The position numbers were made by a program, and so were the translations under genes. Below, piece after piece: positions 3,536 to 53,966 of a stretch of 64,000 nucleotides of DNA. Source of the DNA: Ulvibacter litoralis (GTDB lineage: Bacteria; Bacteroidota; Bacteroidia; Flavobacteriales; Flavobacteriaceae); assembly GCF_900102055.1 (NCBI RefSeq), contig NZ_FNBA01000001.1:581085-645084 (forward strand), written 5' to 3'. The notes beneath the pieces were generated by a model. It saw nothing but the letters and a program-made list of their open reading frames with translations, searched no databases and had not been told where the DNA came from. Numbering within the stretch: position 1 is the first letter of the stretch; every line of letters begins with the position of its first letter.

Positions 3536-3873
3536 ATACCATAGAACAAATACTACATATCGCAAAGCTAAAAAACAATTGCCCTGTATGTTATGCTACA
3601 GATGGTTTAGAGATTTCGTTTATCCAAGAAGAACACGAAAATAAATATTACAACAAAATAAAAAAGGAAGTTTCAGAAACCCTGTATTGTCATAGTTGTA
3701 AAAATATTATTTATCCTGTAAACTGGAATGAAGATATTGAACGTGTGTATCAATATCATAAAAAACAAGCAAAACCAAAAAGTGCACAAATACAATTAAA
3801 ACCTATTACGTATTCAGTCGTAATTGGCATTCTACTCGTTCTTTTTGTGGTTTTTTATGTAGCTAGCCTATAG
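3532..3873 (+). CDS. small zinc-ribbon (2x CxxC) protein with a C-terminal TM anchor, translationally coupled to the upstream HK
   Basis: 113-aa ORF whose start overlaps the HK stop (ATGA). It has CPVC and CHSC pairs and a hydrophobic C-terminus (VVIGILLVLFVVFYV). Confidence 0.45.
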   Translation: MNTIEQILHIAKLKNNCPVCYATDGLEISFIQEEHENKYYNKIKKEVSETLYCHSCKNIIYPVNWNEDIERVYQYHKKQAKPKSAQIQLKPITYSVVIGILLVLFVVFYVASL

Positions 3874-3880
3874 CGTATTT

Positions 3881-4273
3881 CTAAGCCATGTTTTTTTGAA
3901 TTGCCGTAGCCAAAGCTATAAATTCTTCTGAAGACATAGCAACTTTGTGAGAAAAAGTCATTTCTTTCATCTCATTTAACGGAATTAAATGAACGTGAAC
4001 ATGTGGCACTTCCAATCCAACAACTGCAACTCCTACTCGTTTACAAGCAACCGTTTTTTCCAAAGCGATGGCAACCTTTCTAGAAAACTTCATCAGTTTT
4101 ATATAAGTTTCTTCATCTAGGTCGAAAATTTTATCCACCTCGACTTTAGGAACACATAATGTATGTCCTTTCGCATTTGGATTGATGTCTAAAAAAGCTA
4201 TAAAATGTTCGTCCTCTGCTACTTTGTAACAAGGAATTTTACCTTCAATTATTTGTGTAAAAATAGACACCAT
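3881..4273 (-). CDS. HIT (histidine triad) family hydrolase
   Basis: 130-aa ORF with an HVHVHLIP histidine-triad motif. Confidence 0.85.
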   Translation of the reverse strand: MVSIFTQIIEGKIPCYKVAEDEHFIAFLDINPNAKGHTLCVPKVEVDKIFDLDEETYIKLMKFSRKVAIALEKTVACKRVGVAVVGLEVPHVHVHLIPLNEMKEMTFSHKVAMSSEEFIALATAIQKNMA

Positions 4274-4750
4274 TTAGTCTCTTGTAATTTCTAAAATTTC
4301 AAAATTTATAACTCCGTTTGGGATTTGTATTTCGGCTACATCCCCTACTTTCTTACCAAGCAATCCTTTTCCGATAGGTGAATCTACTGAAATTTTTCCA
4401 GTTTTTAAATCGGCTTCACTTTGCGCCACCAATTTATAATTCATTTCCATCCCGTTGGCTTGATTTTTAATCTTCACATTAGAATGCACTAAAATTTTAG
4501 AGGTATCTAAAACAGACTCATCTATTAAACGAGCATTGGCATATACTTCTTCCAATTTAGAAATGCGCATTTCTAGCATTCCTTGTGCCTCTTTTGCAGC
4601 ATCATATTCTGCATTCTCACTTAAATCTCCTTTATCACGAGCTTCCGCAATTGCTTTAGAAGCATTCGGACGCTCCACATCTTTAAGCTGATTAAGTTCT
4701 TCTCTCAACTTTTTTAAACCTTCTGCTGTATAATAAGATACTTTACTCAT
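4274..4750 (-). CDS. greA: transcription elongation factor GreA
   Basis: 158-aa ORF with an N-terminal coiled-coil (YTAEGLKKLREELNQLK) and a C-terminal FKBP-like domain, both typical of GreA. Confidence 0.9.
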   Translation of the reverse strand: MSKVSYYTAEGLKKLREELNQLKDVERPNASKAIAEARDKGDLSENAEYDAAKEAQGMLEMRISKLEEVYANARLIDESVLDTSKILVHSNVKIKNQANGMEMNYKLVAQSEADLKTGKISVDSPIGKGLLGKKVGDVAEIQIPNGVINFEILEITRD

Positions 4751-18482: not shown

Positions 18483-18570
18483 CGCGAAAAGCTACGCAGT
18501 ACCGCGCTTTACACTGTATCTTTTTCTCGTGCCTCTAAAAAGGATGCCGTTTCAATCGCTAGTGCAAACC
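18483..18570 (+). repeat. dispersed intergenic element, copy 1 of 3 (variable hairpin followed by a conserved GGATGCCGYTTC box)
   Basis: Shares AGTACCGCGCTTT, a CTRTATCTTTTT segment and AGGATGCCGTTTCAATCGCT with the copies at 28024..28108 and 41785..41872. Confidence 0.6.
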
Positions 18571-28023: not shown

Positions 28024-28108
28024 ACTTCAGTAGGTCGGGTCATCCACTATATCTTTTTTGTCCCCTTCTGCGACAAAAAAGGATGCCGCTTCTACCCCTA
28101 ATGCAAAT
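28024..28108 (+). repeat. dispersed intergenic element, copy 2 of 3
   Basis: CTATATCTTTTTTGTCCCCTTCTGCGACAAAAAAGGATGCCGCTTCTACCCC. The hairpin is TTTTTTGTC/GACAAAAAA, followed by the conserved GGATGCCGCTTC box. Confidence 0.6.
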
Positions 28109-34609: not shown

Positions 34610-35050
34610 ATGGAAGAAAATACAAAGACAGAAAATTGGTTTAAACGAAACTGGAAATGGGCAGTACCAACAGGTGGTTGTCTTTTAACTATTTTATTTA
34701 TTATTGGTTTTGCCGGAACGATGGTTTTAGGCGTTAGCTCTTTATTTACAAGCTCTGAGCCCTATAAAGAAGCACTAACAAAGGCGCAAACCAGTCAATT
34801 AGTGATTGACATTCTTGGAGAACCCATTGAAAAAGACGGCATTGCAAAAGGAAGTGTTAATTATACCAATGGTGATGGATATTGCAACCTAGATATTCCT
34901 ATAAAAGGACCTAATGGAACCGCTATTATTACCGTTATTGCTGAAAAACAAACCGACGTTTGGAACTATGAAACCCTAGAATTACGAGTTCATGATACCG
35001 GAGAAATCATCACTTTGCTTGAAAACAATGAGGTCTTAGACGATTGGTAA
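34610..35050 (+). CDS. hypothetical membrane-anchored protein (Coa1-like fold candidate)
   Basis: 146-aa ORF with a single N-terminal TM (VPTGGCLLTILFIIGFAG) and then a soluble domain. Its end overlaps the bioA 3' end by 15 bp. Confidence 0.35.
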   Translation: MEENTKTENWFKRNWKWAVPTGGCLLTILFIIGFAGTMVLGVSSLFTSSEPYKEALTKAQTSQLVIDILGEPIEKDGIAKGSVNYTNGDGYCNLDIPIKGPNGTAIITVIAEKQTDVWNYETLELRVHDTGEIITLLENNEVLDDW

Positions 35051-36301
35051 ACAGCTTTCGATTGCCGTGTATATTGTTTGTAATTCGGAATCTGAAATAA
35101 CAAAAGGTGGCAATATGTAAATTGTATTTCCTAACGGACGAAGAAATACCCCCGCTGTCATAAAATGCGAAAACAATTCATTTCGAAGGTTTCCGTAACG
35201 CTCCATTTCGATGTTTAAATCGAGTGCAAAAATGACTCCCAACTGTCTCACGGATGCCACTTTTGGATGTTGTATTATTTTTTCTGAAAAGGCTCGATGT
35301 GCATTTTCAATTCGATGAATTGACCCTTGAATCGCTTCTGAAGTTAACAAATCAATTCCTGCGATAGCCGCCGCACACGCTAACGGATTTGCACTATAGG
35401 TATGTGCGTGAAAAAAGCCTTTGGCAATTTCGTTGTCTAAAAAAGCATCAAAAACGGTTTGTGTGCAACTCGTAATACTCATTGCAGCAACACCCGCAGT
35501 AAGTGCTTTACTCAAACACATAATATCAGGTTTTGTCTCTAGATATTCTGAGGCAAAGTTTTTTCCTGTTTTTCCAAATCCCGTCATCACTTCGTCTGCA
35601 ATACACAAAATATCATTTTGTTTGCAAAGCTTCAGCAGTTGTTCTAACCCTTCCGCAGAATGAAATTTCATTCCTGCAGCTCCTTGCACTAAGGGTTCGT
35701 AAATAAAAGCAGCACAATCATTTTCAGAAATAATGGTTTTCAATTTTGAAAGCACTTCAACATTGTTTTCAGCAGTTGGCACTGGAATTCGTTCCACCTT
35801 CAGAAAAAAGTCTTCGAAAGGCCCGTTATACACCGAAAGACTCGAAACACTCATTGCTCCAAACGTATCGCCATGAAATCCGTCGTCAAAAGCAATTAAG
35901 GTATTTCGCTTCGTTCCTTTATTAAAATAATACTGAAACGCCATTTTAATTGCGGCATCTACCGCTGTCGAGCCGTTGTCATTAAAAAATATTTTTTGCT
36001 GATTAGACGGTAAAATCGCCATCAATTTTTCAGAGAGTTGTACCGCAGGTTCGTGCGTAAATCCTGTAAAAACGACTTGATCCAGCTGTTGCATTTGTTT
36101 GCAAACAGCTTCAATAATAGTATCGTTGCAATGTCCGTACATGGCGGTGTACCAAGAGGCAATGCCATCGATGTAAGTGTTTTTGTTCTCATCGAACAAC
36201 AACGCGCCTTTCGCTTTTACAATTCCGATAGGGTCGCTACTGGTTTTGTGCTGTGTTAACGGATGCCAAATGTGTTTTCTATCTCTTTGTTGTAGGCTCA
36301 T
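35036..36301 (-). CDS. bioA: adenosylmethionine-8-amino-7-oxononanoate aminotransferase BioA
   Basis: Class-III aminotransferase fold with the PLP-lysine region (CLSKALTAG) and BioA-like length of 421 aa. Confidence 0.9.
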   Translation of the reverse strand: MSLQQRDRKHIWHPLTQHKTSSDPIGIVKAKGALLFDENKNTYIDGIASWYTAMYGHCNDTIIEAVCKQMQQLDQVVFTGFTHEPAVQLSEKLMAILPSNQQKIFFNDNGSTAVDAAIKMAFQYYFNKGTKRNTLIAFDDGFHGDTFGAMSVSSLSVYNGPFEDFFLKVERIPVPTAENNVEVLSKLKTIISENDCAAFIYEPLVQGAAGMKFHSAEGLEQLLKLCKQNDILCIADEVMTGFGKTGKNFASEYLETKPDIMCLSKALTAGVAAMSITSCTQTVFDAFLDNEIAKGFFHAHTYSANPLACAAAIAGIDLLTSEAIQGSIHRIENAHRAFSEKIIQHPKVASVRQLGVIFALDLNIEMERYGNLRNELFSHFMTAGVFLRPLGNTIYILPPFVISDSELQTIYTAIESCLPIV

Positions 36302-36340
36302 ACTATTGTCTTACTGAACTGGTGTTGCTCTTTTTTTATG

Positions 36341-36451
36341 GTGCGACCCTGAAACGAGTTCAGGGTGACGTAGTTTCTATTTTTTACCGTCTTCATACAA
36401 CCGTCATGCTGAACTCGTTTCAGCATTTCACTAAAATATGTCTAATGTTTC
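36341..36451. repeat. about 105-bp structured direct repeat, copy A, overlapping the GIY-YIG gene 3' end
   Basis: GTGCGACCCTGAAACGAGTTCAGGGTGACG...GCTGAACTCGTTTCAGCATTTCACTAAAATATGTCTAATGTTTC. About 85% identical to copy B at 36724..36823. It contains two internal hairpins. Confidence 0.8.
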
Positions 36452-36757
36452 AAGTTTAGGATTCGTTTCTCTTATTAGATTTAACTTCCATCCTTTATGC
36501 CAATTTTTCAATTGCTTTTCTCTTGCAATTGCTTGTTCAATATCACTAAACTCTTCAAAATAAATCAAATCTTTGAGATTGTATTTGCTTGTGAATTTAG
36601 AACCAACTCCTTCTATATGTTCTAAAATTCTCTTTTGAAGGTTAGCTGTAACTCCAATATAAAAAGTTGTTCTGTACTTATTTGTCATAATATATACAAA
36701 ACTTCTTTTCATCATTTTTTGTTTGTGTGACCCTGAAACAAGTTCAGGGTGACGCAT
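36431..36757 (-). CDS. GIY-YIG nuclease-family small protein (COG2827-like), inserted cassette
   Basis: YIMTNKYRTTFYIGVTANLQKRILEH is the GIY-YIG motif. The likely true start is MMKRSF at about 36718. Both ends lie inside the direct repeats, and the C-terminus KLETLDIF-stop is encoded by the repeat. Confidence 0.8.
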   Translation of the reverse strand: MRHPELVSGSHKQKMMKRSFVYIMTNKYRTTFYIGVTANLQKRILEHIEGVGSKFTSKYNLKDLIYFEEFSDIEQAIAREKQLKNWHKGWKLNLIRETNPKLETLDIF

Positions 36758-36823
36758 GATTTCATGTTATAGTCGTCCTGCTGAACTCGTTTCAGCATCT
36801 CACTAAAATATGTCTAATGTTTC
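36724..36823. repeat. about 105-bp structured direct repeat, copy B, overlapping the bioD 3' end and the GIY-YIG 5' end
   Basis: GTGTGACCCTGAAACAAGTTCAGGGTGACGCATG...GCTGAACTCGTTTCAGCATCTCACTAAAATATGTCTAATGTTTC. It supplies the bioD C-terminal RLETLDIF-stop. Confidence 0.8.
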
Positions 36824-37423
36824 TAATCTTGAAGCATACTCTCGCACTACATTCGCATCAAAATAAGGCTCTTCTTCAATTCGTCCGAGAATGGCTACTC
36901 CACTCATTTCTGCAATAATAGTTTCGGTGGAAGGATTTTCGTCTCCGTTAAACAAGATTCCGAAAATGGATAGACCGCGTTGTTTCAATACCTCGATGGT
37001 TAGTAATGTATGATTGATACTCCCTAAATAATGACGAGAAACAACAATCACTTTATCTTTCGGCTGAATCAAATCCAGGACCGTTTCTGAATTATTGATC
37101 GGCACTAAGAGTCCGCCAGCACCTTCAATCACTAATTTATTTTGAGTCGTAGGTCTTTTGATTTTTTTAGCTTCAATAGTAATACCATCTAATTGCGCAG
37201 CTGCGTGCGGACTCATAGGGGTATTCAAATTGAAGGCACTTGGATGAAATTTTGTTTTTGTATTGCTCACAAGCGCTTTCACTTTATGTGTGTCACTTGT
37301 ATCCAAATCGCCAGCCTGAATGGGTTTCCAATAATCTGCTTGCAATGTTTCTGTGAGTATTGAAGCAGCAATTGTTTTACCCACATCGGTACCAATACCC
37401 GTAATGAAATACGTTTCTTTCAT
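36803..37423 (-). CDS. bioD: dethiobiotin synthase BioD
   Basis: The likely start is MKETYFITGIGTDVGKT (P-loop). The ORF runs 36803..37450. Confidence 0.85.
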   Translation of the reverse strand: MKETYFITGIGTDVGKTIAASILTETLQADYWKPIQAGDLDTSDTHKVKALVSNTKTKFHPSAFNLNTPMSPHAAAQLDGITIEAKKIKRPTTQNKLVIEGAGGLLVPINNSETVLDLIQPKDKVIVVSRHYLGSINHTLLTIEVLKQRGLSIFGILFNGDENPSTETIIAEMSGVAILGRIEEEPYFDANVVREYASRLETLDIF

Positions 37424-37455: not shown

Positions 37456-38622
37456 CTATATATCGAGTCTATTAATTGCGCTTTTTAGCGCTTCCATCAA
37501 GCGCGTAATTTCTGCTTCGGAATGGGACGAATGAATACAAATGCGCAAGCGTTCTTTTCCTTCTGAAACTGTGGGAGAAAGGATCGCTTTTACAGAAAAA
37601 CCTTGTTGGTGTAATGCTTCTGAAACTGCTTTTACACGATTATTTCCAGGAAGCAAACAACAATGTATGGCTGTTTCACTTTTTATAAAGTAGTTCTGAA
37701 GTGTATATTTTTCAATATTTGATTGCAATATTGCTATATTCAAATTTAACTTTATTATGTTTTTAGTACTTACTAACTGTTCATATGCAGCTTTTATTGT
37801 GGCCACCGAATGGGGCGGCAGTGCGGTTGTGTAAATAAAGCTTCTTGAAAAATTTAATAAGTAGGTAATTAAGTCCGAACTTCCTAAAACGACAGCACCG
37901 TGACATCCTAACGCTTTTCCGAAGGTGACAATACGCGCAAAAACAAAAGCCTCTAAACCGAGTTCTTGTACGAGTCCGCGCCCTTTACCTACAACTCCGA
38001 CAGCGTGTGCTTCATCTACAACAAGATGAAATGAATGTTCTGTGCAATAGGCTGAAAATGCATTTAGATCTGGCATATCGCCATCCATAGAAAAAACAGA
38101 TTCCGTAACCACATACACTTCGACATCTTTGGCATTTGGCTGAGCGTTTTGTAACTGAATAATTTTTTGCTGAAGATCGGCCAAGTCGTTGTGCTTAAAC
38201 TTCACTGCTTTTGCATGACTTAGTGAAATTCCGTCCCGAATGGACGCATGACTATACTCATCGTAAAAAATACAATCTCCTCGTTGGGGCACACTGCTGA
38301 AAAAACCCAGATTAGCATCGTAGCCGCTGTTAAAAATTAATGCTGAGTCTATGTTGTGAAAAGAAGCTATAAAGGCTTCAGCGGACTTAAAAAGTGGATG
38401 ATTACCCGAGAGTAAGCGAGATCCTGTGGCGCCATTTACTTCAAGTCGTTCTTCTGCTAAAATTTTAGAAGCTCTTTTAAAAATGGCTTCAGAAGTACTG
38501 AATCCTAAATAATCATTGGAAGAGAAATCGATCAAGCCTTCTTCGTTAGAAAGACGACGCAGCGATTTGTTTTCGATGCGTTTCTGTAATTTGGATTGAA
38601 GCTTTTTCGGAATGGATTTCAT
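37456..38622 (-). CDS. bioF: 8-amino-7-oxononanoate synthase BioF
   Basis: Class-II aminotransferase. The PLP-lysine region is SMDGD...TFGKALG, and the protein has BioF-like length. Confidence 0.85.
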   Translation of the reverse strand: MKSIPKKLQSKLQKRIENKSLRRLSNEEGLIDFSSNDYLGFSTSEAIFKRASKILAEERLEVNGATGSRLLSGNHPLFKSAEAFIASFHNIDSALIFNSGYDANLGFFSSVPQRGDCIFYDEYSHASIRDGISLSHAKAVKFKHNDLADLQQKIIQLQNAQPNAKDVEVYVVTESVFSMDGDMPDLNAFSAYCTEHSFHLVVDEAHAVGVVGKGRGLVQELGLEAFVFARIVTFGKALGCHGAVVLGSSDLITYLLNFSRSFIYTTALPPHSVATIKAAYEQLVSTKNIIKLNLNIAILQSNIEKYTLQNYFIKSETAIHCCLLPGNNRVKAVSEALHQQGFSVKAILSPTVSEGKERLRICIHSSHSEAEITRLMEALKSAINRLDI

Positions 38623-49946: not shown

Positions 49947-52900
49947 TTAGTTTTTAATTAGTTGTTTTGTTATCGTTCCTACTGAAGATTTTAAAACCAC
50001 AAAATACGTCGCACTAGATAATGTTGAAACGTCTATCGTTTTATTCTCTTTTGTTTGTTCCAAATTTGAGTGCAATAACACTCTTCCTGTCGCATCATAA
50101 ATATCAATCTCTTGTAACAATACTCCATAAGGCACACTAATAGTTAATTGGTCCTGTGCAGGATTTGGAAACAAGCTTATTCTATTTAACATATTATCGG
50201 TTGTTCCTAAAATTTCAGATTTAAACTGAAGTATAAATCGGTTGTTATAGGTTCCTGCTGTGGCTGTAAATTGATAATCACTCTCCGATAAGTTGGTTGT
50301 AATTCCTAAATACGTATCTACTAAATAAACGGTGGAAGCTTCTAACGCCAAGCCTTCCATATTTGCAATGGAAATAATATACGGCAAGCCTTCATCTACT
50401 TCTAATTGTGTAGAAAATCCGAGAGGAATATAACTGTCAGCATCAAAAGCTTCTCGCGATTGGATGCTAAATTCGCCACTTCCATCTTCTAGATGCGAGT
50501 ACAACGAAACTACCGTTGCCAACCTTCTACTATCGTATCCATTATCGATACCTGCGGTAGCATTTTCAGTAAAACCAATTAAAGCCGTATTTTGCATCGT
50601 ATAGGTTCTATTCTGAACTGAAAGCCAAATTTTATTTACTTCGGAATCATCAAAACGAAGTGTATTGTTATTAGACAATCTACGCATCGAATTGGTAAAT
50701 AGTGCCGATCCTGAAGCAGTTGCTTTAATTCCAAACCCTTGCCCTGTTGAAATAAAGCCGTCAGGTTCAGAATCTACTCCTGAAGGATCACTGGCAGCAG
50801 CAACACCTCCCATTAAATTATACATAGAAATATCCTCCATGCTAAAATTCATTCCGTTATACCCCGGAAGTGAAGCATTTGGAGACGTAAAATGTTCCCA
50901 AAAATAAACCTCATCTACCATTGCATTTTGATTAATAAAATCGGTAGCGGAGATGGATGAAGCATACGGATTTGCTAAAATATTCGGACTGTCATTTTTT
51001 GTGGTGTTATACGCTACTGGAAACGAAATGTCCCCATTATTCAAGGTTCCTTCAGAATATACCAAATCGTACGAGGTGTCTCCATCGGTGATCGACGCTT
51101 GAGGCCAAACTAAAAACCCTTCCGAAGCATTAATAACCCCAGTGTATAGCGACCAATTATCTCCATTGTCGTCTGCAAAATTTTCAGCATCAGGAAATGC
51201 AGCTGCAACCGTTGCATCTGGAACAAAATTAGCAGTAGTATGATGTAAAACTCTAAAAGCATTTCCGAAGACATCGTCTCTTGTTTCCGAATCCATCGGA
51301 CTCCCAAGTACCATAAAATCTCTTGGTTTTAGAACTGGTGTGGTTACATTTACATTGATATCGCCATTATTAAGTGCTATGGCGTCAGCATCACGTTGCA
51401 CTAAATTTCCTTGATGATTTACATTTAGGGTTCCATTTACATTTACCCCATACCCTACTTCAATATAATCATCTGCCTCAACGGTCACTACTACTCCGGT
51501 GTCGATATACAATGAACACGCAGAGAAACTACCAAAATCTTCTGTGTTATAATTCACTCGAATAATTGCATTAGTCGTTAAATTTGGCTCGGTTGGCGAC
51601 CATATTCCAGAAATAAATTCGGTAGTAGCATTACAACTAGCCAAAGGCGCTTCAATGGCTTGAATTCTGAAAGTAATTTCATTCGCTAAATCCGCTCGTT
51701 TTGATAAACGTATATAATATGTGGTTCCTGCAGTTAAACTAAAAAACAATCCGTCATCAGAAAAACAACTCAATTCTGTACCACCACAACTATCAAAAAG
51801 AGAGACACCTTCTGAATTTGAAATATTTGACACTTCTATATTTCCATCTACAGGCATTACAAACTCATACCAAAAATCTAAATTAACAATAGATGTATTA
51901 TCACAACTAGCATTCATACTTTCGGTGGCTCTTCTAAAATCGTTGGTATATTCTGAATAGGTTACAACCCCCACATCTATAAACGAAGCTGAAGCGCAAG
52001 TATCGTTTTCTAATGCTTCAAAAGCCTGCAAATCAAAAGAAGAGTTATTTGCAAAAAGGGTTCGTTCGGCATAGCGCAATACATAGGTTGTACTTTCAGT
52101 TAAGCCATAAAAGAAATCATTCCCAGTAAAACAATACAACTCTGTTCCCTCACAGGCATCGTACAAAGTAAAGGTTTCAGTATTTGCGGCATCAGTAATA
52201 CGAATATTACCCGTAACAGGCATGGTAAACTCATACCATACATCTAAAAAATCAATAGAAGTTGAGGTTTCACAATTGGTCACAAAATCGGGAGCTGTAG
52301 GACTAGCAGCACTAAAATCAGCGCTTACTGTTGTAGTGGCAGCCGTAGTAACCGAAATTGTTTCCTTATTTTCACAATCGTCATTTGCGATACTAGTATA
52401 TGCCTGAATATCAAAATCAGAGCTATTCGCGAAAAGTGTTCGCTCCGCATATCGCAACACGTAAGTGGTGTCTTCAGTTAAATTATAAAAGAAATCATTC
52501 CCAGAAAAGCAGTGTAACTCTGTGCCTTCACAGGCGTCATACAAGGTAAAGGTCTCTGTATTTGCAGCATTTGAAATTTGAATATTACCCGCAACAGGCA
52601 TGGTAAACTCATACCATACATCTAAAAAGTCAATAGAAGTTGAAGTTTCACAGTTGGTCACAAAATCGGGAGCAGTAGGACTAGCCGAACTAAAATCGGC
52701 ACTTACTGTTGTAGCCGCAGCAGTAGTAACTGAAATTGTTTCCTTATTTGCACAATCGTCATTTGCGATACTAGTATATGCTTGAATATCAAAATCAGAG
52801 CTATTCGCGAAAAGTGTTCGCTCCGCATATCGCAACACATAAGTGGTGTCTTCGGTTAAATTATAAAAGAAATCATTCCCAGAAAAGCAGTGTAACTCTG

Positions 52901-53966
52901 TGCCTTCACAGGCATCATACAAGGTAAAGGTCTCTGAACTTGCGGCATTTGAAATTTGAATATTACCCGCAACAGGCATGGTAAACTCATACCATACATC
53001 TAAATAGTCGGCAGAAGTTGAGGTTTCACAACTGGTTATAAAGTCTGGAGCGGTAGGAGTTGCCGCGCTAAAATCTGTACTTACGGTTATAGGTGCAGTC
53101 GTCGTAACGGAAATTGTCTCTCTATCTAAACAATCATCATTTGCGATACTGGCATATGCCTGAATATTAAAATTGGAGTCGTTTGCATAAAGGGTTCGTT
53201 CTGCATATCGCAACACATAAGTCGTACTCTCCGTTAAATTATAGATGTATCCACCACCAAAAAAACAGCGTAATTCTGTTCCTTCACAAGCATCGTACAA
53301 CGTAAATGACTCCGTACCCCCTGCATTTGAAATTTGAATATTTCCATCAACTGGCATCGTAAATTCATACCAAACATCTAAATAATCGGTAGAAGTTGAG
53401 GTTTCACAACTGGTTATAAAGTCTGGAGCGGTAGGAGTTGCCGCGCTAAAATTGGCATTTACTGTTGTCGTGGTAGCTGTCGTAACCGAAATGGTTTCCC
53501 GATCGGAACAATCGTCATTTGCAATAGTAGCATATGCCTGAATATTAAAACTAGAGTTATTTGCGTATAGTGTACGCTCTGCATATCGCAGCACATAAGT
53601 CGTACTCACCGTTAAATCATAGATGTATCCACCACCAAAAAAACAGCGTAATTCTGTTCCTTCACAAGCATCGTACAACGTAAATGACTCCGTACCTCCT
53701 GCATTGGAAATTTGAATATTTCCATCAACTGGCATCGTAAACTCATACCAAACATCTAGATAGTCAGCCGAAATTGAGGTTTCACAGTTGGTTAGAAAAT
53801 CTGCCGCAGTAGGAGTCGCTGTTCCAAGAGCAGCCGATGTGTTTGTTGTCCCCGTTGTTGTTACGGTAATGCTAATTCTATCAGCACACGCATCATTAAT
53901 GGGGGTTTGCGCAAAAGTTTGAAAGGAACTAAAAAAAAGAAAAAGTAGTAGTAAAGGTGTTTTCAT
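49947..53966 (-). CDS. giant secreted T9SS substrate: signal peptide, 6x 126-aa Cys-containing tandem repeats, a beta-helix-like region and a C-terminal Por/T9SS sorting domain
   Basis: 1339-aa ORF with signal peptide MKTPLLLLFLFFSSFQTFAQ. The repeats begin at aa 24, 150, 276, 402, 528 and 654. The C-terminal 80 aa (FPNPAQDQLTISVPYG...YFVVLKSSVGTITKQLIKN) match the T9SS CTD. Confidence 0.85.
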   Translation of the reverse strand: MKTPLLLLFLFFSSFQTFAQTPINDACADRISITVTTTGTTNTSAALGTATPTAADFLTNCETSISADYLDVWYEFTMPVDGNIQISNAGGTESFTLYDACEGTELRCFFGGGYIYDLTVSTTYVLRYAERTLYANNSSFNIQAYATIANDDCSDRETISVTTATTTTVNANFSAATPTAPDFITSCETSTSTDYLDVWYEFTMPVDGNIQISNAGGTESFTLYDACEGTELRCFFGGGYIYNLTESTTYVLRYAERTLYANDSNFNIQAYASIANDDCLDRETISVTTTAPITVSTDFSAATPTAPDFITSCETSTSADYLDVWYEFTMPVAGNIQISNAASSETFTLYDACEGTELHCFSGNDFFYNLTEDTTYVLRYAERTLFANSSDFDIQAYTSIANDDCANKETISVTTAAATTVSADFSSASPTAPDFVTNCETSTSIDFLDVWYEFTMPVAGNIQISNAANTETFTLYDACEGTELHCFSGNDFFYNLTEDTTYVLRYAERTLFANSSDFDIQAYTSIANDDCENKETISVTTAATTTVSADFSAASPTAPDFVTNCETSTSIDFLDVWYEFTMPVTGNIRITDAANTETFTLYDACEGTELYCFTGNDFFYGLTESTTYVLRYAERTLFANNSSFDLQAFEALENDTCASASFIDVGVVTYSEYTNDFRRATESMNASCDNTSIVNLDFWYEFVMPVDGNIEVSNISNSEGVSLFDSCGGTELSCFSDDGLFFSLTAGTTYYIRLSKRADLANEITFRIQAIEAPLASCNATTEFISGIWSPTEPNLTTNAIIRVNYNTEDFGSFSACSLYIDTGVVVTVEADDYIEVGYGVNVNGTLNVNHQGNLVQRDADAIALNNGDINVNVTTPVLKPRDFMVLGSPMDSETRDDVFGNAFRVLHHTTANFVPDATVAAAFPDAENFADDNGDNWSLYTGVINASEGFLVWPQASITDGDTSYDLVYSEGTLNNGDISFPVAYNTTKNDSPNILANPYASSISATDFINQNAMVDEVYFWEHFTSPNASLPGYNGMNFSMEDISMYNLMGGVAAASDPSGVDSEPDGFISTGQGFGIKATASGSALFTNSMRRLSNNNTLRFDDSEVNKIWLSVQNRTYTMQNTALIGFTENATAGIDNGYDSRRLATVVSLYSHLEDGSGEFSIQSREAFDADSYIPLGFSTQLEVDEGLPYIISIANMEGLALEASTVYLVDTYLGITTNLSESDYQFTATAGTYNNRFILQFKSEILGTTDNMLNRISLFPNPAQDQLTISVPYGVLLQEIDIYDATGRVLLHSNLEQTKENKTIDVSTLSSATYFVVLKSSVGTITKQLIKN
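51627..53897. repeat. in-frame 378-bp tandem repeat array (6 units; units 1-5 nearly identical, unit 6 diverged) inside the giant T9SS protein gene
   Basis: The artefactual plus-strand ORFs 52222..52407 and 52600..52785 are near-identical and 378 bp apart. Protein repeats are NDDC(S/L/A/E)(D/N)(R/K)ETISVTT...DVWYEFTMPV.GNI...TLYDACEGTEL.CF...YVLRYAERTL(Y/F)AN.S.F(N/D)IQAY.SIA. Confidence 0.9.

Follow-up and report, generated by a model that had tools for sequence, protein, structure and literature searches.

The spacer between bioD and bioA in the biotin operon of Ulvibacter litoralis very probably contains a hairpin-ssn-hairpin module of the Ssn/SRM type, in which ssn, the gene of a small GIY-YIG nuclease, is bracketed by CGTC-tagged hairpins. 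We analysed a stretch of 64,000 nucleotides (NCBI RefSeq assembly GCF_900102055.1, contig NZ_FNBA01000001.1, positions 581,085 to 645,084), referred to here as the window. Its open reading frames (ORFs) and matches to Pfam and NCBIfam give the order bioF-bioD-ssn-bioA, all on the minus strand (Table 1). An earlier sequence-only reading had recognised a small GIY-YIG gene between bioD and bioA, bounded by hairpin-bearing direct repeats and of the repeat-plus-nuclease kind, and our analysis bears this out. Systems of this kind have been known since 2025, and the locus is a new example of them. The nuclease, like BioD, is 100% identical to a U. litoralis database entry.

A characterised relative, SsnA, is a single-domain GIY-YIG protein of 94 aa (CDD cd10448) which binds the NTS hairpin CGTCATTCCCGCGMAVGCGGGAATCYRG only as single-stranded DNA (ssDNA) and in one orientation, cuts a few nucleotides 5' of the tag, and leaves double-stranded DNA (dsDNA) untouched (Chenal et al., Nat Commun 2025, PMC11893778). 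The window protein resembles it in its domain structure. PF01541 is its sole Pfam domain, covering residues 20-93 of the maximal ORF, and no extra DNA-binding domain is present. The maximal ORF begins at ATG 36757, inside repeat copy B. The database entry and the conserved N-terminus of the homologs place the true start at ATG 36712 (MKRSFVYIMTN...), and longer database entries include upstream extensions coded by the hairpin. Hairpin hp1B therefore lies in the 5' leader of ssn. Copy B had been said to hold both the end of bioD and the 5' end of the nuclease gene; the first part stands, and the second applies only to the maximal ORF. Among 49 homologs, 24 columns are invariant and 26 near-invariant. 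The invariant ones include R28, E65 and N78, while conservation of Y7 and Y18 is at least 90%. Y7, Y18 and E65 are one residue off Y6, Y17 and E64, the residues mutated in Neisseria meningitidis SsnA (PMC11893778), an equivalence made by this offset.

Viral contigs scanned for the exact NTS motif gave an NTS-gene-NTS unit (L264, 7785-8165), which we used as a stand-in for Ssn, its gene being flanked on both sides by exact Neisseria-type NTS hairpins. In BLASTP the window protein is 40% identical to the L264 product over 93 residues (E=4e-28); the homolog criterion of Chenal et al. is E<1e-10. By analogy with SsnA, the 93-aa protein should bind the CGTC-tagged hairpin only as ssDNA, in the orientation that reads CGTC, and should cut a few nucleotides 5' of the CGTC tag. 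A sequence search of PDB returned only weak UPF0213 matches (E about 2e-3) and no Ssn structure. A PADLOC match to UzuA was marginal and partial (E=0.005) and was not taken as evidence. The exact Neisseria-type NTS hairpin was also seen in at least 120 viral or prophage contigs of IMG/VR (L213-L332), sometimes in arrays, as with the 13 copies in L222, and the complete NTS-ssn-NTS unit was seen once, in L264. The clade of the window protein is present in 1 of 2.9 million viral contigs of IMG/VR (contig L333).

Two hairpins in each repeat copy had been proposed, and folding as ssDNA confirmed all four. Each has an 8-bp stem (7 bp in hp2B) and a 5-nt loop, with z = -2.9 to -4.0. Read from the tag, hp1A is CGTC-ACCCTGAA-CTCGT-TTCAGGGT-C, and hp1B has the loop CTTGT instead. 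Likewise, hp2A is CGTC-ATGCTGAA-CTCGT-TTCAGCAT-T and hp2B is CGTC-CTGCTGAA-CTCGT-TTCAGCAT-C. The hairpins within one repeat copy are near reverse complements of each other, and the tags of the two ssn-adjacent hairpins (hp1B and hp2A) face outward in inverted orientation. Hairpins follow the stop codons of bioD and ssn after 3-4 nt, hp2A beginning 3 nt past the ssn stop. As RNA, the two hairpins of a copy can instead pair into a single long stem (z = -4.2 and -5.9). We do not favour this long stem as the selected structure, because the covariation lies within single hairpins and the partners of a dimer differ in stem sequence.

The covariation was seen in a consensus of 411 unique hairpins, collected with the tag and GAA/TTC as the only anchors. 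Watson-Crick pairing holds in 94-99% of them at the five free stem pairs, and the pair types vary at three positions (T:A 292 / C:G 102, C:G 203 / G:C 171, and T:A 357 / C:G 49). The first stem base is A in 403/411, and the base after the stem is C in 398/411.

The repeat copies, about 110-120 nt each, lie in direct orientation, one on each side of ssn, and consist of two modules. Module 1 (36402-36451 and 36774-36823) is 50 nt long with 96% identity, and module 2 (36331-36370 and 36715-36754) is 40 nt long with 88% identity; the linkers between them differ in length (Table 1) and also in sequence. Since this two-module repeat aligns at 81% mean column identity in a gapped alignment of the two 151-nt stretches containing the copies, the earlier description of about 105 bp at about 85% was a fair summary. 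Past hp1A, copy A has 9 more repeat nucleotides (36331-36339), and bioA starts 29 nt past the repeat end. From the ssn stop to bioA there are thus 129 nt with two hairpins, and the claim that the nuclease gene stops immediately before bioA does not hold. The 15-mer shared core CTGAAACGAGTTCAG has 4 sites in the window at up to 1 mismatch, all at the ssn locus. At up to 3 mismatches it has 8 matches per 64 kb against 1.8 expected, a number reached by 0 of 100 shuffles. Direct repeats of hairpin dimers of about 100 nt also flank ssn at other loci (L146, with 98% identity over 102 nt, and L201, L197, L137, L207 and L204), and in L207 and L204 the repeat likewise extends into the 3' end of the ORF. 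With such repeats elsewhere, the U. litoralis architecture is a typical form and no singular accident.

The repeat reaches into both reading frames upstream of the hairpins. bioD ends with RLETLDIF-stop within copy B and the nuclease gene with KLETLDIF-stop within copy A, as the sequence-only reading had noted. That reading supposed that the repeat already existed at the bioD terminus and was then duplicated, and the homologs argue the other way. More than 100 nuclease homologs end with NPxLxTLxx (NP-x-L-x-T-L plus two residues), in which N84 and T89 never vary and P85, L87 and L90 reach at least 90% conservation. Among 120 BioD homologs, the residues after EYA are unrelated tails of 7-12 residues, such as SILEPRLK (EYASILEPRLK) or EKLKSSL. 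Because NPxLxTLxx is a feature of the nuclease family and the tails of BioD relatives are unrelated, ETLDIF-stop is native to the nuclease, and the end of bioD is a fragment of a nuclease 3' end fused in frame. The DNA identity between the two gene ends begins at the GAA (E) codon, and the upstream dimer carries the last 21 nt of the ssn reading frame in frame with bioD; the element therefore supplies the last six residues and the stop of BioD. The fusion might have occurred at microhomology of the ssn tail CTTGAAACA with the native tail of BioD TTTGAAGCA, but their 7/9 match is too weak to support this.

A metagenome scan gave 80 homolog loci (51-80% identical), most of which have a tagged hairpin just upstream of the gene and an inverted one just downstream. 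The sequence-only reading had suggested a search for further copies of the element and of GIY-YIG genes ending with ETLDIF; copies of the hairpin, and nuclease genes ending with ..ETLD.., are indeed widespread. Among the closest relatives, the bioD-ssn-bioA context was seen in L134, L135, L138 and L139, and look-ups with BioD added L003 and L005-7. Side by side with these, ssn with hairpins was observed between hisA and hisF in L133, L136 and L140 (about 3950-4320) and between trpD and trpC in L141 (1050-1510). One ssn in a his operon is as similar to the window ssn (79-80%) as any bio-located copy. HHDW/RHDW/KHDW is common to the three copies in his operons and the one in a trp operon, and the bio-located copies mostly have HK[GEA]W.

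A related genome with an empty bioD-bioA junction had been sought, and L132 is such a genome. It has the same gene order (BioD 81%, BioA 86%), a BioD tail of IFEAKLK-stop, and a 22-nt spacer without hairpins. The junction is also empty in L131 (Rasiella, BioD 73%) and in L128-130 (an Ulvibacter metagenome-assembled genome, BioD 69%). In L001 (BioD 88%), a fused tail (...TFHALNIF-stop) is followed by hp2, linker, hp1, about 44 nt replacing ssn, a second tail-hp2, and the contig end. We tried the 44 nt as a remnant of the ssn core, but the alignment was not convincing, and L001 is therefore described only as lacking ssn. Other genera have a simpler join. In L003 (BioD 72%), the first hairpin lies directly on the bioD stop (...RHPELDSRSH-stop) and the second abuts bioA. 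In L005 (BioD 73%), the first hairpin again lies directly on the bioD stop (...LTSP-stop) and the second about 60 nt before bioA; BioD ends with LTSP in several further homologs. There are thus at least two junction types, in addition to presence/absence variation, at the bioD-bioA junction. Since the same junction is occupied in other genera with a simpler join, the arrangement is not a one-off recent event. The identity of ssn roughly tracks that of its neighbours (L005-L135: 88% versus 94% for BioD and 91% for BioA), and its dN/dS of 0.04-0.24 indicates purifying selection. The gene is therefore functional and has long resided at this site in some clades.

At the empty site of L132, the palindrome ACTGAA-GTAA-TTCAGT (ACTGAAGTAATTCAGT, 3605-3625) overlaps the bioD stop. 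It has the CTGAA/TTCAG stem core of the hairpins without the CGTC tag. It may be a scar, a target of the element or a chance resemblance, and it is absent at the other empty sites. The two assemblies of the closest relative both break within an hp2 hairpin at contig ends (L001 3926 and L002 928), which is what a multi-copy hairpin in that genome or community would lead one to expect. In L139, a CGTC-tagged hairpin CGTCATTCTGAACTTGTTTCAGAATC lies in frame within bioF (2276-2303) and encodes LRHSELVSESH; it falls in a variable linker whose sequence in U. litoralis BioF is unrelated.

To follow the distribution of the hairpin, species-representative genomes were scanned for exact matches to a 26-nt pattern that hp1 and hp2 share. 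Among the matches listed are Flavobacteriaceae, Chitinophagales, Pedobacter, Roseivirga and many Sphingomonadales, as well as Patescibacteria, Treponema, Sulfurovaceae, Elusimicrobiales and others. Most of these listed matches are solo hairpins or dimers with no nuclease gene close by, and dispersed solo copies occur in other Flavobacteriaceae and in many phyla. A few bracket a GIY-YIG homolog at a spacing of 377 nt, the same as in flavobacteria.

Table 1. Genes, hairpins and repeat copies at the U. litoralis ssn locus (window positions)
Feature	Position	Strand	Description and support
bioF	37456..38622	-	8-amino-7-oxononanoate synthase, first gene of the local operon; Pfam PF00155; TIGR00858 E=6e-103 (344 bits, under the curated 426-bit cutoff)
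bioD	36803..37423	-	dethiobiotin synthase, 206 aa; TIGR00347 above cutoff
bioD final codons	36803-36823	-	ETLDIF plus stop, in repeat copy B; derived from an ssn 3' end (tails of 120 homologs)
Repeat copy B	36715..36823		in coding direction: ssn-type ETLDIF-stop, hp2B, 19-nt linker, hp1B
hp2B	36774..36799	+	CGTC-tagged hairpin CGTCCTGCTGAACTCGTTTCAGCATC; first stem base C, not the near-invariant A; 7-bp stem
hp1B	36729..36754	- (coding)	CGTC-tagged hairpin CGTCACCCTGAACTTGTTTCAGGGTC, consensus-perfect; ends 16 nt before the ssn start codon
ssn	36431..36712	-	93-aa single-domain GIY-YIG nuclease, Ssn family; PF01541 E=5e-17
Repeat copy A	36331..36451		in coding direction: ssn's own ETLDIF-stop, hp2A, 31-nt linker, hp1A
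hp2A	36402..36427	+	CGTC-tagged hairpin CGTCATGCTGAACTCGTTTCAGCATT; T after the palindrome, C in 97% of 411 relatives
hp1A	36345..36370	- (coding)	CGTC-tagged hairpin CGTCACCCTGAACTCGTTTCAGGGTC, consensus-perfect
bioA	35036..36301	-	adenosylmethionine-8-amino-7-oxononanoate transaminase, downstream operon gene; TIGR00508 E=5e-162

Several points weigh against reading the locus as an Ssn/SRM module. The published SRM string, HGTCWYN(0-2)YYVSBRHN(0-5)WNVSBRGN(0-2)RNCYNB, has 0 matches in the four hairpins and in the whole window, so that by the authors' operational criterion the gene would be an Ssn homolog without SRMs. The canonical NTS, used as a control, does match the string; the window hairpins fail at its G+C-demanding stem positions and agree in tag and format. 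The published search would therefore overlook this hairpin class, a variant in sequence. The homology behind the Ssn assignment goes through L264. Each hp2 copy has a rare base at a position that is otherwise near-invariant (Table 1), and hp2A and hp2B may for this reason no longer be recognised by the nuclease; the base after the stem, which is changed in hp2A, is the position most critical for binding (PMC11893778). A generic search of the 64-kb window for perfect tagged hairpins found only the sites at the ssn locus and none in the remaining 63 kb. Finally, the parallel identities of ssn, BioD and BioA favour long vertical residence in some clades.

This last point leads to the alternative that ssn is a long-resident, domesticated part of the operon, passed down vertically since an early flavobacterial ancestor, with the empty sites as precise losses and the repeat as a local tandem duplication without mobility. 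It is a serious partial alternative, compatible with the Ssn identification and differing only on history, and we regard it as possible but doubtful. Occupied bioD-bioA junctions in divergent lineages (L003, L005-7, L134, L135, L138 and L139) agree with it, as do the parallel divergence of ssn and its neighbours, the separation of the his/trp copies from most bio copies by their HHDW/RHDW/KHDW and HK[GEA]W motifs, and a dN/dS far under 1. However, the closest fully syntenic relative, L132, is empty and has a normal BioD tail, and a single inheritance does not fit easily with two junction types, in which either a hairpin lies on the bioD stop (...LTSP-stop) or an ssn tail is followed by a hairpin dimer. 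An ssn in a his operon is as similar to the window ssn as any bio-located copy, and the dispersed solo hairpins and arrays imply some copying mechanism.

The hairpins might instead act mainly as RNA, stabilising, attenuating or translationally coupling the biotin operon, with an incidental ORF and with both junctions needing such a signal. Their stable paired folds and their positions just after the bioD and ssn stop codons would suit this role, units recur within bio, his and trp operons, and REPs (repetitive extragenic palindromic elements) of Escherichia coli affect mRNA stability. However, Rfam has no model for the hairpins at gathering or permissive thresholds (the only matches being two Flavo-1 elements elsewhere and chance miRNA-like matches), the coding strand has no U-tract and no terminator call, and the hairpins lack the G+C-rich stem with U-run of an intrinsic terminator or attenuator. 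L132, L131 and L128 run the operon without hairpins, and the ORF is strongly conserved. Given these empty-site relatives, and a 26-nt pattern found in either orientation and in unrelated contexts across Bacteroidota, Sphingomonadales, Patescibacteria, spirochaetes and others, an RNA role as the primary function is very improbable; an RNA side-effect of the hairpins on the operon is possible. We give still less weight to a free-standing homing endonuclease cassette of the phage T4 Seg/Mob or I-TevI type, which would spread by cutting a dsDNA target and repair copying and leave the repeats as a by-product. The GIY-YIG domain, a sub-threshold match to the group I intron endonuclease model TIGR01453 (28 bits versus the cutoff of 56), and the varying presence at one intergenic site among relatives are what one would expect of such a cassette. 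However, the protein has only 93 aa and none of the added DNA-binding domain or phage/intron residence of GIY-YIG homing endonucleases, its clade is almost absent from viral contigs, and characterised relatives leave dsDNA untouched (PMC11893778), which makes this explanation extremely improbable. It is also at odds with the strong purifying selection on ssn across genera and with the constant association with covarying, structured hairpins.

For the Ssn module at this junction, we consider a gain or rearrangement in the lineage of U. litoralis and L001 more likely than a loss in L132, because the L132 junction differs and its BioD tail is normal. The unit would have entered or been rearranged at bioD-bioA after the split from the L132 lineage, which has the empty 22-nt spacer and the normal tail, probably through a tandem or duplicative event that left the truncated upstream copy. 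In the sister lineage L001, the ssn core is missing, with about 44 nt in its place, and the repeats are still present. Speculatively, the direct repeats could stem from tandem units with truncation or from a circular hp1-ssn-hp2-linker intermediate that recombined with a solo dimer. If the enzyme nicks 5' of CGTC as its relatives do, the nicks at the ssn-adjacent hairpins would fall outside the gene, on opposite strands, within the dimer linkers. To our knowledge, GIY-YIG enzymes have no strand-transfer chemistry that would account for the spread of the repeats.

The biotin operon transcript was expected to read through the element, and this is plausible. No terminator-like site was found on the minus strand between 35900 and 38800, and in the coding direction no T-rich tail follows the stems. 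No sigma-70-type promoter match was found in the ssn flanks, in a scan whose coverage does not include Bacteroidota promoters. Among the 46 homolog loci with enough flank, both neighbours are co-oriented with ssn in 29 and both are opposed to it in 4. With the same orientation as the operon and neither a terminator nor a promoter of sigma-70 type recognisable as its own, ssn is probably read as part of a bioF-bioD-ssn-bioA message, in which the hairpins would be stable stem-loops without U-tracts. Those after the bioD and ssn stops could affect mRNA stability or translation termination. The motif TAACTTTG was observed just upstream of the bioA start in two empty-site relatives (L128 2505-2522 and L131 3690-3708). 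It resembles TAnnTTTG, the -7 promoter element of Bacteroidetes. No motif of this type precedes bioA in the window, which fits dependence of bioA on read-through there. As to the role of Ssn in flavobacteria, one candidate by analogy is restriction or trimming of ssDNA during recombination or uptake, as in Neisseria, and another is the maintenance or spread of its own hairpins.

Elsewhere in the window, two matches to Flavo-1 RNA (RF01705) lie on the minus strand at 18496-18567 and 28029-28106, with 44 and 42.7 bits against a gathering threshold of 42; the two also form the direct-repeat family D10. From 51811 to 53835, a 378-nt unit is repeated in tandem five to six times, with 72-84% identity between copies, and is probably a repeated domain in the gene of a large surface protein.

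What the locus adds is a Bacteroidota example whose hairpin class escapes the published motif, so that motif-based surveys probably under-count Ssn-associated repeats. Also new are the residence in biosynthetic operons with co-orientation, the donation of a C-terminus and stop to a host gene, and a natural series of full, gene-less and empty sites. The locus shows a cost-free route by which such elements remodel a host gene: the C-terminus and stop of BioD come from the element here, and elsewhere, in further genera, bioD stops within the hairpin. The locus offers natural substrates and variants, including two substituted hairpins, for working out recognition rules, and it leaves the understanding of the system unchanged.

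Compared with the Ssn/NTS system, the window unit has the same kind of enzyme (about 94 aa, a lone GIY-YIG domain, and Tyr, Tyr and Glu at equivalent positions) and the same placement of inverted CGTC hairpins 5' and 3' of the gene. In the published survey, a hairpin of this kind lies near 71% of Ssn homologs and on both sides of 42%, and NTS-ssnA-NTS was likened to an insertion sequence (PMC11893778). The variant NTSvar, CGTCATACTCGGG-N5-CCCGAGTATC (PMC11893778), shares the format of the window hairpins, with CGTC, a stem starting with A-T, a 5-nt loop, and C after the stem. The stem in the window is AT-richer, A[TC][GC]CTGAA, which is where the SRM string fails. Unlike Neisseria, with hundreds of hairpins per genome, the window has 4 in 64 kb, all at ssn, and its unit is housed in a biosynthetic operon, where the host gene upstream takes its last codons and stop from it. 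The main text of PMC11893778 makes no mention of Bacteroidota or of operon contexts.

The hairpins also belong with an older description. CGTC-tagged REPs of Bacteroidetes and Alphaproteobacteria have an unpaired CGTC (or TGTC) tag, a stem of 8-9 bp starting with A-T, a loop of 4-5 nt and a short tail; they frequently form heterodimers, occasionally lie in frame within genes, and 'apparently lack a dedicated transposase', no enzyme gene having been found (Di Nocera, De Gregorio, Rocco 2013, PMC3733652). All four window hairpins fit this format, hp2B with a mismatched first pair. In contrast to the elements of 2013, those of the window and of most homolog loci bracket a GIY-YIG gene, and within the 64 kb of the window they occur at one locus. 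The locus thus joins the CGTC-tagged REPs of 2013 to the Ssn nucleases of 2025, and PMC11893778 does not cite the 2013 work. From the repeat-ssn-repeat arrangement here, the empty site in a close relative and the gene-less repeats in the sister lineage, one may go further and suppose that Ssn is the missing enzyme of these orphan REPs, with the nuclease gene as a cassette entering and leaving hairpin dimers and with units preferentially in bio, his and trp operons. We consider this extended proposal unlikely as it stands. If it were true, promoter-less co-oriented units would tie nuclease dosage to starvation-induced transcription, and ssDNA processing to the nutrient state.

Two further systems invite comparison. 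As in REPIN-RAYT systems, a single conserved and vertically persistent nuclease gene has its own hairpins, the hairpins form dimers and arrays resembling BIMEs (bacterial interspersed mosaic elements), and the hairpin would be recognised in ssDNA. The window unit falls outside that class, since it combines a GIY-YIG enzyme with a CGTC tag, whereas RAYTs combine HUH/Y1 chemistry with a GTAG tag. Like the Rickettsia palindromic elements and intragenic REPs, the hairpin repeats are tolerated in, or fused to, reading frames, as seen in the BioD tail here, in the bioD genes that stop inside hp1 (...LTSP-stop) elsewhere, and in the bioF hairpin of L139. They differ from the Rickettsia elements in that the piece fused here is mainly the 3' end of the nuclease gene and not the palindrome itself.

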